NCBI GenBank assembly: GCA_964016885.1
Contig: OZ024765.1
Coordinates: forward strand, 496,001 to 560,000
DNA from: Eledone cirrhosa
Taxonomy: Eukaryota
Direction: 5' to 3'
DNA length: 64,000 nt
The stretch's first letter is position 1, and every line of letters starts with the position of its first letter. The position numbers were made by a program, and so were the translations under genes. The notes under the pieces are model-generated. The model was given only the letters and a program-made list of their open reading frames with translations. It was not told the origin of the DNA and ran no database searches. Shown one piece after another: positions 8,533-57,536 of this stretch.

Positions 8533-8767
8533 ATGCTTCGATAAGTTTTGGCCAGTGTTGGCCCAACTTATGTCTAATTGAATAGCACCTGACGAAGCCT
8601 TTCAAATCAGGATTTGGACACCATGCCCGACTCAAGTAGAGAGTTTATATTTACAGTCATATCGGCGTATAGGAGGTTTATCCGGGATTTCTTGAAATAA
8701 TTTGTCTAAAGATTGTTTGAACATAGGATCTGTCTCTGTTTGAATGTGATTTGGTGTAATGTTAAAT
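8533..8767 (-). mobile_element. Older, degraded 3' fragment of the same LINE family as 47245-50906
   Basis: Reverse complement ...CTTTAGACAAATTATTTCAAGAAATCCCGGATAAACC...CATGGTGTCCAAATCCTGATTTGAAAGGCTTCGTCAGGTGCTATT...GGGCCAACACTGGCCAAAAC aligns with about 50650-50880, with substitutions and indels. Confidence 0.85.
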
Positions 8768-45495: not shown

Positions 45496-45695
45496 NNNNN
45501 NNNNNNNNNNNNNNNNNNNNNNNNNNNNNNNNNNNNNNNNNNNNNNNNNNNNNNNNNNNNNNNNNNNNNNNNNNNNNNNNNNNNNNNNNNNNNNNNNNNN
45601 NNNNNNNNNNNNNNNNNNNNNNNNNNNNNNNNNNNNNNNNNNNNNNNNNNNNNNNNNNNNNNNNNNNNNNNNNNNNNNNNNNNNNNNNNNNNNNN
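45496..45695. other. Assembly gap (200 N)
   Basis: Run of N. Adjacency across the gap is not guaranteed. Confidence 0.99.
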
Positions 45696-45808
45696 CAAGG
45701 GCATAAATAATCACAAGTGTTCCCTATATAGTTCGGAAAGAGTTTTGGGGGTTAAATCTACATCAAGATTCATTGCTCGCAAAAATATCTTGTTTTGATT
45801 TGCAGCAG

Positions 45809-46836
45809 TATATGTATATATATGTATGTATGTATGTATATATATATATATATATATGTATGTATATGTATATATGTATATATATATATATATATATGTA
45901 TGTATATGTATATATATATATGTATGTATATGTATATATATATATGTATGTATATGTATATATATATATGTATGTATATGTATATATATATATGTATGTA
46001 TATGTATATATATATATATATGTATGTATATGTATATATATATATGTATGTATATGTATATATATATATATATATGTATGTATATGTATATATATATATA
46101 TGTATGTATATATATATATGTGTATGTATATGTATATATATATATGTGTATGTATATATATATATATGTGTATGTATATGTATATATATATATGTGTATG
46201 TATATGTATATATATATATATATATGTATGTATATGTATGTATATGTATATATATGTATGTATATGTATATATATGTATGTATATATATGTATATATATG
46301 TATATATATGTATGTATATGTATATATATGTATGTATATGTATATATATATATGTATATGTATATATATGTATGTATATATATGTATATGTATATATATG
46401 TATGTATATATATATATATATGTATGTATATGTATATATATGTATGTATATATATATATATATGTATATATATGTATGTATGTATATATATATATATATA
46501 TATGTATGTATATGTATATATATATATATATGTATGTATATGTATATATATATATATATATGTATGTATATGTATATATATGTATGTATATGTATATATA
46601 TATATATATGTATGTATATGTATATATATGTATGTATATATATATATATATGTATGTATATGTATATATATGTATGTATATATATATATATATGTATGTA
46701 TATATATATATATATATGTATGTATATATATATATATATGTATGTATATGTATATATATGTATGTATATGTATATATATGTATGTATATGTATATATATG
46801 TATGTATATGTGTATATATGTATATATATATGTATG

Positions 46837-46869
<33 letters not shown>

Positions 46870-46886
46870 GTATGTATATATATATG

Positions 46887-46933
<47 letters not shown>

Positions 46934-47066
46934 GTATGTATATATATATGTATGTATATATATATATATATGTATGTATATATATATATATATGTATGTG
47001 TATATATATATATATATGTATGTATGTATATATATATATGTATGTATATATATATATATATGTATG

Positions 47067-47146
<80 letters not shown>

Positions 47147-47244
47147 TATGTATGTATATATATATATATATGTATGTATATATATATATATGTATGTATA
47201 TATATATATATGTATGTATATATATATATATGTATGTATATATA
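45809..47244 (+). repeat. ~1.4-kb compound (TA)n/TATG satellite, left flank of LINE
   Basis: Only T/A with interspersed G (TATGTATGTATATA...); G, not C, on the + strand. Confidence 0.95.
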
Positions 47245-47805
47245 AGAACTCTCCCTCCCACAGTCCACAAAGGTCGTCAAATCCTACCCAAACCATCATC
47301 TACACCTCTCACAACACCCACACCCATATACCCACCCACTCGAAACCCCATCATTTGCCGCTACTCTCTACGCTATAGAATATGTACGGATAGTGGCTGC
47401 AAATTCACCCATTTACCTAGGACAAAACGATCTATCCCCACAAACAGCCACCACCATAATACATACTCTAATTTAACACCAACACAACCACCAATAACTC
47501 AAACAAGGAATCCACAAATCTGCCGTTTTTCCCTGCGAGACAGATTGTGTTTAGACCGGGATTGTCCCTTTACCCATCTCCCGGGGACCCGTCGGATAAA
47601 TGAAAATAAAAGCAAAAACAAAAACCATAACCTACATAAAAATAACCACTACCACAGTCACCAACAGTCTTCTAAACAGGAAACTTCTTCCTCTTTTTTA
47701 GCCATAATGAATCTGGCAAAAGAACTGGAAAAAAACATTCGAGCTATCACCCAGCACCACCCTCCACTATCACCCCACTGCACAAACTCCCATTGCTGCC
47801 ATTAA
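47245..47805 (+). CDS. LINE ORF1 C-terminal part with two CCCH zinc fingers (5' end missing)
   Basis: Real part of ORF 45826..47805: Pro/Thr-rich linkers, [19 protein letters not shown] (47356-47412) and [19 protein letters not shown] (47521-47577), both C-x8-C-x4-C-x3-H. Stop TAA at 47803-47805. Confidence 0.8.
47694..47736 (+). other. Candidate -1 ribosomal frameshift sites (T TTT TTA 47694-47700; A AAA AAC 47730-47736)
   Basis: Both heptamers are in X XXY YYZ phase relative to ORF1 codons (TCT TTT TTA; GAA AAA AAC). The -1 frame is ORF2 and is stop-free from 47676. Confidence 0.55.
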
Positions 47806-50800
47806 CAAACAAACAAATTAACAACACACCAAAACAATTAAAACCATCCACTCTCGCCTCTACATTTTTGCTTAACGCCCAAGGCATCAGCCCTTCCACC
47901 AATACTCAAAAATGGAAGATCAAATTCCTGGAGGACTGGATTGATGTCCATCCAAACCACATCCCTTTCTTCGTCCTCACTGAAACCCATCTCAGTAACC
48001 TCCACTTGGAAGCCGAGGTGAAAGTGAAAAATTTCAAAGCCATCCGTGCTGATCGCGCTGGCAGAAGAAAGGGCGGAACTGCCATTTATGTCCATAATTC
48101 TTTCTCAACAGAGGCTATGAACATATTCACTAATGGATACTGTGAGGCAGTCACTGTATTCAGTCAAACCAACAACCTATTAGTAGTTGGGCTCTATAGG
48201 CCACCCCAAACGCCTGTACCATGCTTCAAGGAATGCCTCAACAGCATAAAGTGTTTCATCCAAGAGTGTCACCCTGACAACATCTTAATGATGGGGGACT
48301 TCAACCTCCCCGGAGTTGACTGGTCCACAAACACCCTGCCACCAGGTTCTTCTGCCTCAACCTCTGACAGGGAAGCTGTGGAATCGCTTCTTGACTTCAT
48401 GGATGATTTCTTCCTATCCCAACTAGTGCTCGAACCAACGAGGTGCCACAAAAACGTCCTAGACTTAATTTTCAGCAATCACACTGACAATATCCACAAT
48501 ATTGCAGTGGAGAAAACTCTACTCTCTGATCATGACATGGTTCTCTGTGATCTGAGATTCCACCGTCCAATATACAAACCCAATGTCATTTCTCCTGTCC
48601 ATCCGTTTGACGCTATGGATTTCCACAATGCAAACTGGGAAGCGATCAGTCATGATCTTGCACATGTCGACTGGTCCTTCACGCACACTCATACACCCAC
48701 TAACATCAAAAAGTCCTGGCAGACATTTGTGGACACTGTTACAAACATATGTGCTAAACACACCCCATTAAGAACTATAAACAAATCTAAGAGCAGAATC
48801 CCTAGAAATAGAAAAACGCTCATCAGAAAAATTAAGAGAACGAACAAAAAAATCAACAATCTGAAATACTGTCAGCAGCAACACATCAACTTGACTGCCA
48901 TTTCATCACTAGAGATTAAAAAACATAACCTCCAAAACAACATAATGTCCCTCATCAACAATCAGAGAAGAGCTGAAGAGGCCTGGGCCATTGAGAAGAT
49001 CAAACTCAATCCCAAAGTGTTCTTTTCATTTGCAAAAAAACACAAAATCACTGGCTCTACTGTTGGCCCTCTAATTGATGAAAATGGCACTCTTCAAGAC
49101 AATGCTAAAACCATGGGTGAGATACTGCAGAAACAATACTGCTCTGTTTTCAGCAATCCTGATATGGCCGATCTGGGCTGTATCGGCGATGTTACTCCCC
49201 ATTACACCTTATCGGACATAACGTTTGGCGCCCCTGATGTCTTGGCGGCAATAAAGGAAATCAAGCATAATTCAGCAGTAGGTCCCGATAGGTTCCCTGC
49301 TTGTGTCTTGAAGGCGTGTCAACACCAACTTGCTTCTCCTCTTGCCAATCTGTGGCGGAACTCACTGGATGCTGGATATGTGCCAGAAAACCTTCTATCC
49401 CAGTCTGTTGTCCCAGTTTTCAAAAAGAGAAACAAATCCCTTGCCGTGAATTACCGTCCAATCTCACTCACCTCTCATATCATTAAGGTATTTGAGCGAG
49501 TGGTGAGATCGCGAATGACCCACTTCCTTGAGAGTAACAATATGCTGAACTCCAACCAGCATGGATTCCGTAATGGAAGGGATTGCCTGACGCAACTACT
49601 GCATCACTTTGATGACATTTTGAGAGCCTTGGGAGAGGGTTCCAACACTGATGTTATCTACCTTGATTTCAGCAAGGCCTTTGACAGGGTTGATCATAAC
49701 ATTCTACTGAGAAAGCTGTCCAATATTGGTGTCACTGGAAAGCTGCTGCAGTGGATCAAGAGCTTCCTGTCAAACAGAACCCAACATGTTGTAGTTGAGG
49801 GAGTCAAATCAAGCCCAGCCAAAGTCAGTAGTGGAGTCCCACAAGGCACTGTGTTGGGCCCACTTCTCTTCATCATCTATATTAATGACATCACTGACAT
49901 CATCAAACACAGCAACATTAAAATTTTCGCTGATGATTCCAAGCTCCAAAAGGTCATCAATGGCGTGGATGACCGGATAAGCCTTCAGTCAGACCTACTG
50001 GCTGTTACCCAATGGGCAGAAAAGAACAACATGTTACTGAACGAAGACAAATTCGAACTGATCCACTTTGGAAAAGAGGATGCTCTGAAACTCCCGTACT
50101 CCCTTCCCTCCGGGGAAACTCTCGTGGCATCTAACAACATCAGAGACTTGGGAGTAACCGTGGACAGCAACATAAGCTGGACCACGCATATAAGCAGCAA
50201 AGTTGACATGGCCCGCAGAATGTGTTCCTGGATCCTCAGAACCTTCCAGTCGAGAGATTCCCGCACCATTATCCTTCTCTTCTCTACTTTCGCCCGACCA
50301 CACCTTGAATACTGTTGTCCACTGTGGTCTCCCCACACGAAACAAAGTATCATGAAACTTGAAGCTCCTCAAAGGGCAATCACGAAAAAGATAGATGGCA
50401 TGTCAGACCTTGACTACTGGGGTCGATTGGAAAACCTGAAACTTTACTCACTCCAACGTCGCCGTGAGCGTTATATTATCTGCATGATGTGGAAAATGTT
50501 CCATCATCACTGCCCAAATGATGTTGGCATCGCCTTCAAGATACACCCAAGGCTTGGGCCCCGTGCTATCCGTCCCATTCAAAAATCTAAATCGCAACTC
50601 ATAACAACAATACGGCACAATTATTTCACCTCAATCGGCCCTGCTCTCTTCAACATCACACCAGGACACGTCAAAACAGAAACTGACCACACAAAATTCA
50701 AGAAGTCTTTGGACAAATTCCTCCAAGTAATCCCGGACAAACCACCCACACCCGGATATGTCTCCGCAAACAGTAATTCTCTTCTCGAATGGGCCATGGT

Positions 50801-50813
50801 GCCCAAATCCTGA
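47793..50813 (+). CDS. LINE ORF2: apurinic-like endonuclease + reverse transcriptase (1006 aa, no stops; frame actually open from 47676)
   Basis: EN motifs LLNAQG, LTETHL, GGTAIYV, LYRPP, MGDFNLP, PTR..LDLIFS, SDH. RT motifs [54 protein letters not shown]1-type C-terminus [12 protein letters not shown] and [10 protein letters not shown]. The listed start is TTG; the first in-frame ATG is at 48117. Confidence 0.95.
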
Positions 50814-50906
50814 ATTGAAAGACTTCGCCAGGTGGTGCTATTAAGTTAGACATGGCCTGGGCCAATACTGGCCAAAACATTTCAAAGTTATTCAAAGTTT
50901 CAAAGT

Positions 50907-51070
50907 TATATATATATGTATGTATATATATATGTATGTATATATATATGTATGTATATGTATATATATATGTATGTATATGTATATATATATGTATGTA
51001 TGTATATATATATGTATGTATATATATATGTATGTATATATATATATATGTATGTATATATATATGTATG

Positions 51071-51101
<31 letters not shown>

Positions 51102-51106
51102 GTATG

Positions 51107-51137
<31 letters not shown>

Positions 51138-51142
51138 GTATG

Positions 51143-51173
<31 letters not shown>

Positions 51174-51190
51174 GTATGTATGTATGTATG

Positions 51191-51223
<33 letters not shown>

Positions 51224-51224
51224 G

Positions 51225-51317
<93 letters not shown>

Positions 51318-51590
51318 GTATATATGTATATATGTATATATATATATATATGTATATATGTATATATGTATATATATGTATATATATATATATGTATATA
51401 TGTATATATGTATATATATATATATGTATATATGTATATATATATATATGTATATATATGTATATATATATATATGTATATATGTATATATATATATATG
51501 TATATATGTATATATATATATATGTATATATGTATATATATGTATATATATATATATATATGTATGTATATATATATATATATATGTATG

Positions 51591-51628
<38 letters not shown>

Positions 51629-51658
51629 TATGTATGTATATATATATATATATGTATG

Positions 51659-51689
<31 letters not shown>

Positions 51690-51726
51690 ATATATATATA
51701 TATGTATGTATGTATATATATATATG

Positions 51727-51815
<89 letters not shown>

Positions 51816-51904
51816 ATATATATATGTATATATATATATGTATATATATATATATGTATGTATATATATATATGTATATATATATATGTATATATATATG
51901 TATG

Positions 51905-51953
<49 letters not shown>

Positions 51954-51968
51954 ATATATATATGTATG

Positions 51969-52015
<47 letters not shown>

Positions 52016-52020
52016 GTATG

Positions 52021-52063
<43 letters not shown>

Positions 52064-52078
52064 GTATATATATATATG

Positions 52079-52146
<68 letters not shown>

Positions 52147-52151
52147 TATAT
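50907..52151 (+). repeat. ~1.25-kb compound (TA)n/TATG satellite, right flank of LINE
   Basis: Same unit type and polarity as 45809-47244. Confidence 0.95.
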
Positions 52152-53123: not shown

Positions 53124-53314
53124 GAACGAGTAGGACCCCGACGGCTGACCTCAAGCCGTTTCGAAGGCTAATTCTGGTCTGAATTAGCCGTCGAAACGGC
53201 CTGAGCTCAGCCGTCGAGGTCCTACTCGTTCCTATTACCCACTCTACTACCCTAAGTATTGAGTACTTTGGTGCGTTATGGTCCACCTGGTTCCTTACTA
53301 CATTTCCTTCGTTA
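53124..53314. mobile_element. Second fold-back copy of the 25451 family, opposite orientation
   Basis: Arms 53124-53174 / 53181-53231; the long arm continues to CCTTCGTTA. Contains GAAACGGC CTGAGCTCA GCCGTC. Confidence 0.75.
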
Positions 53315-56944: not shown

Positions 56945-57536
56945 GGTCACCCCATAGGTCACCCCATAGTGTCAAACTAACCACAGAGCTTGAGGCAATC
57001 CAGCGAAGCTACACCAAGAGGATTGCCAAGATGAAGGAGACAAGCTACTGGGAGAGTCTGAAGGAACTGAACCTCTACTCCTTGGAGCGAAGACGGGAGA
57101 GATACGCAGTGATCTACATGTGGAAAATCCTGGAGGGACTAGCACCAAACTTTGGCATTGGGAGCTGGACCAACCGTCGAACAGGACGTCACTGTGTGGT
57201 GCCAAAGGTCCCGTCTTCCACATCTAGAATAAGGAGCTGGTATTGCAATAGCCTGGGATTCAAGGGCCCTCAACTCTTCAACAGGCTGCCGAGGTATCTG
57301 CGAGACTTGCATGACGTGGAGGTGGATGTCTTTAAGAAACATCTCGACACCTTGTTATCCAGGATCCCGGATGAGCCCACAGCAAGACACGAGGGAAACC
57401 TAAGGGCAGCAGCAACAAACTCCCTCCTACACCAGTGGGCAACCTATACAGGCTGGAGATAAAATGTGTAGCAACAAGGGCGGTGCCCCAGCATGGCCTC
57501 CGCCGGATGGCTGAAACGGGTAAAAGAGTAAAAGAG
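56945..57536 (+). mobile_element. 5'-truncated LINE (second CR1/L2-group family), ORF2 C-terminus plus 3'UTR
   Basis: WSPH...[10 protein letters not shown]...[20 protein letters not shown]...[16 protein letters not shown]...AATNSLLHQ aligns with the C-terminus of 47793..50813. Stop at 57462; tail GTAAAAGA GTAAAAGA. Confidence 0.92.

Follow-up and report, generated by a model that had tools for sequence, protein, structure and literature searches.

A conserved T TTT TTA heptamer at the ORF1/ORF2 junction of CCCH-finger LINEs points to programmed -1 frameshifting

The DNA analysed here (the window) is a stretch of 64,000 nucleotides (nt) from Eledone cirrhosa (GCA_964016885.1, contig OZ024765.1, positions 496,001 to 560,000 of the forward strand), and it carries a copy of a long interspersed nuclear element (LINE) that belongs to what is called below family A. 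The second open reading frame (ORF2) of this element, which encodes the endonuclease (EN) and the reverse transcriptase (RT), lies in the -1 frame relative to ORF1, lacks any ATG ahead of the endonuclease motifs and opens just before a T TTT TTA heptamer that stands in ORF1 codon phase and is conserved, in the same phase, in highly divergent relatives. Very probably, family A and its clade produce a CCCH-finger/EN/RT fusion protein by programmed -1 frameshifting. The comparisons presented below show that the feature is genuine and that its conservation extends well outside this genome. The window copy comprises the following features.

47244..50909 (+): copy of LINE family A, 5'-truncated, inserted within a TA/TATG microsatellite present on both flanks
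47245..47805 (+): ORF1, 3' part only, with its stop TAA at 47803-47805
47356..47412 (+): first CCCH-type finger of ORF1 (C-x8-C-x4-C-x3-H), from the translation pattern, the Pfam hint being sub-threshold
47521..47577 (+): second CCCH-type finger of ORF1 (C-x8-C-x4-C-x3-H), from the translation pattern
47673..47675 (+): final stop (TAA) of the -1 frame ahead of the ORF2 opening, 18 nt 5' of the slippery site
47676..47805 (+): ORF1/ORF2 overlap, 130 nt, -1 frame without stops
47676..50813 (+): ORF2, 1045 codons, -1 frame relative to ORF1, no ATG before 48117
47694..47700 (+): slippery heptamer T TTT TTA (Phe-Leu) in ORF1 phase, conserved; predicted -1 shift site
47730..47736 (+): second heptamer, A AAA AAC (Lys-Asn), in ORF1 phase; fixed in family A, unconserved in relatives
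47865..48542 (+): APE-type endonuclease domain, from the F-L-L-N-A-Q-G strand (Pfam PF14529, E 6.6e-14; PF03372, E 2.3e-7; alignment)
48117..48119 (+): first ATG of ORF2, within the endonuclease (codon position by translation)
49431..50159 (+): reverse transcriptase domain (Pfam PF00078, E 4.2e-31)
50880..50909 (+): 3' tail made of about 3 short tandem repeats (TTCAAAGTTA)

The original prediction, made from the letters of this DNA, had described the junction correctly. ORF2 is in the -1 frame and open from 47676, the overlap, given as about 130 nt, measures exactly that, and T TTT TTA (47694-47700) and A AAA AAC (47730-47736) both stand in ORF1 codon phase. Translation also places the first ATG, at 48117, 3' of the LLNAQG, LTETH and GGTAIY motifs; it lies 81 codons past the Asn of the first endonuclease motif and 314 nt past the ORF1 stop. 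In two other organisms (runs X8 and X10), the dominant contigs have ACG in place of this ATG, and no change at 47694-47700 was found among the matches listed for the contigs of these runs (40 of 71 rows). The element is an APE-type LINE, with an APE endonuclease followed by an RT in ORF2 (Pfam matches above cut-offs), dispersed copies, 5' truncation, a 3' repeat tail and no long terminal repeat (LTR). The best solved relative of its RT in the PDB is human L1 ORF2p. The start of ORF1 is absent from the window copy, which is presumably inactive.

The two-frame layout is the normal state of family A. A DNA search of the same genome gave 1135 candidates, 40 of which were scored, and both heptamers and the two-frame layout were present in all of the 30 loci examined. 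Complete ORF1s of 377-392 amino acids (aa) are carried by 14 of these 30 sister loci; the full-length protein displays a weak Myb/SANT-like N-terminus (Pfam E 0.004, under cut-off), poly-Gln and two CCCH fingers. As the 30 loci were the best matches, gapped junction patterns were also counted genome-wide, with 587-620 matches overall. The pattern for the first heptamer matched 587 times and, among the first 100 matches listed, 94 were of equal length, 3 were +1, 2 were -1 and 1 was +2; the pattern for the second matched 613 times, with 96 of equal length, 3 +1 and 1 -1 among the first 100. Family A is a young LINE family of about 600 copies, and its fused copies are sporadic homopolymer errors, because length variants are few at both sites. 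An indel in a single copy was therefore rejected as the cause of the layout, which is shared by 30/30 loci and about 94% of the listed copies. Neither an ATG upstream of the EN nor a fused master ORF, the two family features named beforehand as contrary to frameshifting, is present in family A.

Two other families of the same genome display the same junction. Family B, first spotted adjoining a family A copy, is 33% identical to family A over the N-terminal half of ORF2. Only 6 of the 20 loci examined reach the junction, and all six carry T TTT TTA in ORF1 phase, a CCCH-finger ORF1, a 270-nt overlap and an ORF2 in the -1 frame without any ATG before the endonuclease motif. Family C, which is 32-36% identical to families A and B, was located later through endonuclease similarity alone; T TTT TTA is found in all 22 loci showing the junction (8 of the 30 examined do not show it). 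The N-terminus of ORF1 is more variable: a Myb/SANT-like region (L004:583-800 and the ORF1 start of L037) is found in family A (weak Pfam match) and family B (similar Trp motif, by eye), and a PHD-like region occupies this place instead in family C and metagenome relatives (L151, L057, L079). By sequence comparison, this is an exchange of ORF1 domains upstream of an unchanged slippery site.

Metagenome contigs scanned with an endonuclease alignment provided more distant relatives (best 80 of 465 loci). FastTree was run on 91 rows, many of which fill under half of the alignment columns, five loci with short endonuclease matches (L089, L090, L112, L124 and L130) being omitted. It recovered one clade of 40 rows (SH support 100) comprising 30 metagenome loci, families A and B and eight proteins. 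This clade stands beside, and separate from, elements whose ORF1 carries PHD or esterase domains, in a tree devoid of reference CR1, L2, Crack, Daphne or Rex1 rows. Four of the 30 metagenome loci end before the junction (L065, L067, L077 and L080) and 25 display a -1 overlap, with an ORF1 that carries CCCH fingers wherever enough sequence is available, often after a PHD-like region (weak PHD matches, under cut-off, in the ORF1 of 2 of the 5 metagenome relatives scanned). The ORF1 of L059 belongs, in the Atlas, to an unnamed cluster in which 10% of the members have zf-CCCH. From the slippery site to the ORF1 stop, the overlap ranges from 111 to 612 nt (37-204 codons) across elements.

In 22 of the 25 metagenome relatives, T TTT TTA is present in ORF1 phase at a homologous Phe-Leu, and the three others have T TTT TTG, G TTT TTA or T TTT CTG at this same Phe-Leu. 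With families A and B, the exact heptamer is thus carried by 24 of the 27 elements that have an ORF1 overlap. Pairwise ORF2 identity among these 27 has a median of 34% (range 25-65%), a divergence at which silent positions should be saturated. Twelve codon spellings are possible for Phe-Leu, and T TTT TTA is the spelling of none of the 97 other Phe-Leu pairs of the same elements, for a prediction of 1.5% from codon usage. The residue preceding the Phe is not fixed (Ser, Asn, His, Ala, Asp, Tyr, Pro), yet T is the last base of its codon in 26/27 elements, so that the constraint lies on the RNA. The six T are nearly invariant (C at 1 of 162 positions), and a G directly follows the heptamer in 23/27 elements. 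Globally, the conservation check proposed with the original prediction came out in its favour for the first heptamer: families A, B and C and metagenome relatives keep the heptamer, its phase and an overlap without stops in the -1 frame, while the flanks drift. Its conservation over such divergent elements indicates that the first heptamer exceeds chance.

The reading frames agree with this. From the site to the ORF1 stop, the -1 frame contains no stop in 2548 codons, a count that is partly due to construction, as the site was sought inside an open -1 stretch; stops amount to 8.6% of the codons of the -1 frame upstream of the site and 6.9% of those of the third frame of the overlap in the same elements. 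The part of the evidence that is not circular is the position of the site near the 5' end of the open stretch. The previous -1 stop lies a median of 5 codons 5' of it, and the homologous site is found inside the open stretch in 27/27 elements, at most 26 codons from its 5' end except in L078, whose sequence holds no upstream stop. The first ATG lies past the first endonuclease Asn motif in 19/28 elements by script, and in 20 when L078 is added by eye.

Besides this partial circularity, several observations weigh against programmed frameshifting. The 27 elements share ancestry, so that a binomial P for the heptamer would not be valid and none is given. Three of the 27 sites are imperfect; one of them, the T TTT CTG of L054 (in the tree, the sister of family A), is ill-suited to tandem slippage. 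An ATG precedes the endonuclease motif in 8-9 of 28 elements, and L079 carries, alongside T TTT TTA, a TAATG stop-start in the ORF2 frame. In one clade member, L076, no ORF1 overlap is seen and an ATG precedes the endonuclease by 58 codons, and P0014, at the base of the clade, is a single protein of 1611 aa with an unrelated N-terminal part. The heptamer with its 3' G reads TTTTTTAG, which could also be a splice acceptor. Finally, RNA structure downstream of the site gives little help. In family A, folding of five windows revealed no local stimulator (z -0.9 to +0.4); across the clade, 19/27 elements are devoid of a clear hairpin and no common structure was found after the site; and no preferential pairing with the element's own 3' tail was detected, either in 11 elements or in a set of 8 whose tail is delimited (p 0.17 by permutation). 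In addition to L076 and P0014, the protein P0007 is a clade member apparently without junction. No relative of 817-2330 aa of the CCCH ORF1 of L066 was found among 3933 candidates, which is weak evidence about fused forms.

The folding considered hairpins only, without pseudoknots. The weak GCCA/TGGC hairpin of the original prediction is real (-4.4 kcal/mol, z -0.9), with a spacing of 0 nt from the first site. Across the clade the excess of structure is modest, the 60 nt 3' of the site being more folded than shuffles (z < -2) in 8/27 elements versus 13/235 control windows (p 0.006). Three elements of one subclade, L071, L075 and L083, have in common a short GC-rich hairpin located 5-30 nt past the site, which is a candidate local stimulator.

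The second heptamer fared differently. A AAA AAC is the slippery site of the gag-pro junction of mouse mammary tumour virus (MMTV) and human T-lymphotropic virus (HTLV). It is among the shiftiest heptamers (PMC5009743). It is absent from the junction of families B and C and of the 25 metagenome relatives of the clade, and is deleted in one old copy, L032, found, however, with a pattern containing the T run. It was rejected as a shared signal, since it is not conserved beyond family A. Therefore, of the two heptamers originally proposed as the signal, T TTT TTA stands by its conservation and A AAA AAC does not; in family A the latter is probably incidental.

An in-phase A AAA AAC was also observed outside the clade, in a separate group of LINEs with a PHD-type ORF1 (L118:1052-1116 and the homologous place in L128 and L129). 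A strong stem-loop begins about 8 nt past the heptamer in these elements (z -2.7 to -5.6), 3 of its 16 pairs being changed on both sides among the only three sequences of the group, and two of the three elements also have an ATG before the endonuclease. The site has the appearance of an independently evolved canonical -1 signal. A AAA AAC is also in phase at three further loci (L088, L097 and L133), but no clear hairpin accompanies it there.

Among the alternatives to programmed frameshifting, the one that survives best, and is itself very unlikely, is that ORF2 is started separately, whether by AUG-independent reinitiation after the ORF1 stop, by a stop-start of the SART1 type or from a near-cognate codon located within the overlap. 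Such starts have precedents: ORF2 initiation of mammalian L1 is AUG-independent and unexplained (PMC5009743), and SART1 uses UAAUG coupling for ORF2 (PMC2699510). The family A copy has near-cognate codons at 47769-47817, L079 has its TAATG at the ORF1 stop, and in both L069 and L070 an ATG lies 4 nt 5' of this stop. However, a separate start would leave unexplained both the invariant heptamer and a -1 frame that is open for 37-204 codons back to that very site. Moreover, the nearest ORF2 ATG of family A, 314 nt past the ORF1 stop, is not placed for coupling of the SART1 type, and TAATG occurs in the ORF2 frame of only 1/28 elements.

A slightly less probable alternative is that TTTTTTAG acts as a 3' splice acceptor, an upstream donor being joined to it to give an in-frame ORF1-ORF2. 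The pyrimidine-rich run before the AG at 47700-47701 in family A, as well as the G that follows the heptamer in 23/27 elements, fits an acceptor. Nevertheless, in most of the clade pyrimidines do not predominate at positions -12 to -1, and the near-invariance of the six T (C 1/162) is unlike a pyrimidine tract. An AG directly past the run is lacking in at least three elements. Spliced RNA should furthermore have left copies in the genome, yet no spliced copy was found beside 620 intact matches; the two copies lacking T at -4 or -5 are an old mutated copy and a 5'-truncated one, in a pattern that a spliced copy with both T would escape. Likewise, among the matches listed for contigs from eight sequencing runs, either DNA or of unknown type, no joint into 47702 was found, contigs that show presence only. 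The runs listed as containing the element included none of RNA, which speaks neither for nor against splicing.

Equally improbable is slippage of the RNA polymerase on the T run, the addition of one U giving a few transcripts with a fused ORF. One extra base at the first site, which fuses the frames, is indeed found in 3 of the first 100 copies listed. However, copies with -1 or +2 are just as frequent there (3 of the first 100 listed) and the A run has the same error rate (3 +1 and 1 -1 in the first 100 listed), as expected of homopolymer errors. If, as cis preference would imply, enzyme-making RNAs are copied preferentially, +1 copies should dominate, which is not seen, and polymerase slippage needs neither a conserved final A nor a codon phase. 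Least probable of all, and refuted as far as DNA can show, is that the heptamer simply follows from a Phe-Leu helix cap conserved in the ORF1 protein (Phe-Leu starts a conserved-looking helix in 27/27 ORF1 proteins) or that the layout is an indel in this copy, given the 12 possible spellings of Phe-Leu, the T-ended preceding codon in 26/27 elements, the 0/97 other pairs that match and the two-frame layout of about 94% of the listed copies.

Programmed -1 frameshifting remains the interpretation supported by these comparisons: the findings that DNA could have brought against it, an upstream ATG, a fused ORF or an unconserved heptamer, were not obtained. According to this mechanism, most ribosomes would read through to the ORF1 stop and produce an ORF1 protein of about 387 aa, which past the site ends, by eye, with an amphipathic helix and a Gln/Pro-rich tail. 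A minority would slip back by one base on U UUU UUA (tandem -1 slippage), exchanging this tail for a low-complexity linker, the EN and the RT. The predicted fusion of family A consists of 351 ORF1 residues and 1039 codons, i.e. about 1390 aa, and the shift would fix a low ratio of enzyme to ORF1 protein in the manner of Gag-Pol. In family A, the slippery site and the G 3' of it may suffice for the shift, some relatives adding a hairpin.

A broader proposal appears to us rather likely, with less assurance than the mechanism itself. The whole of this old clade of LINEs with a CCCH-finger ORF1 would make its enzyme as a Gag-Pol-like ORF1-ORF2 fusion through U UUU UUA, kept letter by letter at about 34% protein identity, at least some members doing so without any RNA stimulator. 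Taken with the second group, which combines A AAA AAC and a stem-loop, LINEs would commonly express ORF2 by -1 frameshifting, a route overlooked so far that would tether the enzyme to its own RNA-binding fingers.

The junction displays two features of a canonical -1 signal, namely a conserved in-phase X XXY YYZ and a -1 frame that is open from the site and needed for the downstream protein. The heptamer is identical to that of human immunodeficiency virus type 1 (HIV-1), in phase and usually followed by G. At this U_UUU_UUA site of HIV, the product is a mixture of Leu and Phe and the bases 3' of the site matter (PMC5009743). The gag-pol junction of HIV-1 and the -1 gag-pol junctions of animal LTR retrotransposons share with the clade an enzyme ORF in the -1 frame that has no start of its own and a structural protein encoded upstream (PMC5009743). 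In contrast, the clade consists of non-LTR LINEs (APE and RT) devoid of LTR, protease and integrase. It also differs from HIV-1 in that no conserved downstream stem-loop was found, and no stimulatory one in family A; the shift would replace the helix and tail of the ORF1 protein by the linker and EN/RT.

Among LINEs, the original contrast, that the well-studied elements use termination-reinitiation or translational coupling, was slightly overstated, as a -1 frameshift is already stated to be needed for ORF2 of the Dictyostelium elements TRE5-A and TRE3-A (PMC5911963). Both these elements and the clade are non-LTR elements of the APE type; the part of that paper available names no slippery site for the TRE elements, which also differ from the clade by their amoebal host, their targeting of tRNA genes, their oligo(A) tails and the zinc finger of their ORF2. 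Drosophila HeT-A is another non-LTR element that needs a frameshift, but this takes place inside gag and the element encodes no RT (PMC5009743). For Paramecium elements, +1 shifting or reinitiation has been suggested (PMC5405496), and Zorro3 needs its ATG (PMC1965478). SART1 and mammalian L1 resemble the clade in having a bicistronic LINE RNA from which little ORF2 protein is to be made (PMC2699510, PMC5009743, PMC1965478). They nevertheless restart at or after the ORF1 stop and thus produce a separate ORF2 protein, whereas the ORFs of the clade overlap by 111-612 nt (PMC2699510, PMC5009743).

The weak PHD matches in the ORF1 of relatives may be a partial likeness of the clade to the CR1 group. 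Family A is called CR1-like here on the basis of motifs and its tail rather than from comparison with reference sequences. An ORF2 with APE and RT, frequent 5' truncation and a tail of short tandem repeats are common to family A and CR1-group LINEs (PMC13343379, PMC4120745). The tandem-CCCH ORF1 is not among the ORF1 types I-V as described for this group in the available text, and neither "frameshift" nor "CCCH" occurs in the available main text of these two surveys (PMC13343379, PMC4120745). Zenon, which has no ORF1 and a poly(A) tail (PMC13343379), was rejected as an identity for family A, whose ORF1 has 377-392 aa and whose tail consists of TTCAAAGTTA repeats. No published slippery site in this clade was found in a literature search that covered few subscription papers or Repbase reports and no supplements, and the available parts of PMC4700185, PMC4255032, PMC1947958 and PMC10294476 hold nothing relevant on frameshifting.

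How ORF2 is translated from a bicistronic LINE RNA is a long-standing question, settled for few elements such as SART1 with its coupling. The answer proposed for this clade is testable, as the seven-base site can be changed without altering the ORF1 protein and the family is young, with hundreds of near-identical copies. If it is true, the active enzyme bears N-terminal zinc fingers and annotations that open ORF2 at its first ATG are wrong for the clade. It would also extend the use of a retroviral recoding signal beyond viruses and LTR elements, and the requirements of -1 shifting could be studied in the clade on a natural series of U6A sites, some followed by a hairpin and others not.

The TA-rich microsatellite around the window copy extends over 45800-47243 and 50907-52150, with a run of N at about 45500-45696, just 5' of it. 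Copies of families A and B often lie within such TA-rich arrays (many of L001-L052, a tally without a background count), which suggests a target preference. Two other traces of related elements were observed in the window, a 3' fragment of a family B copy at 56947-57441 (+) and a short relic at 8659-8766 (-) that is 65% identical to the C-terminus of ORF2. At 53124-53231, AT-rich DNA of the window surrounds a GC-rich, imperfect palindrome (about 108 bp, terminal inverted repeats of 14 bp), which by eye resembles a miniature inverted-repeat transposable element (MITE).

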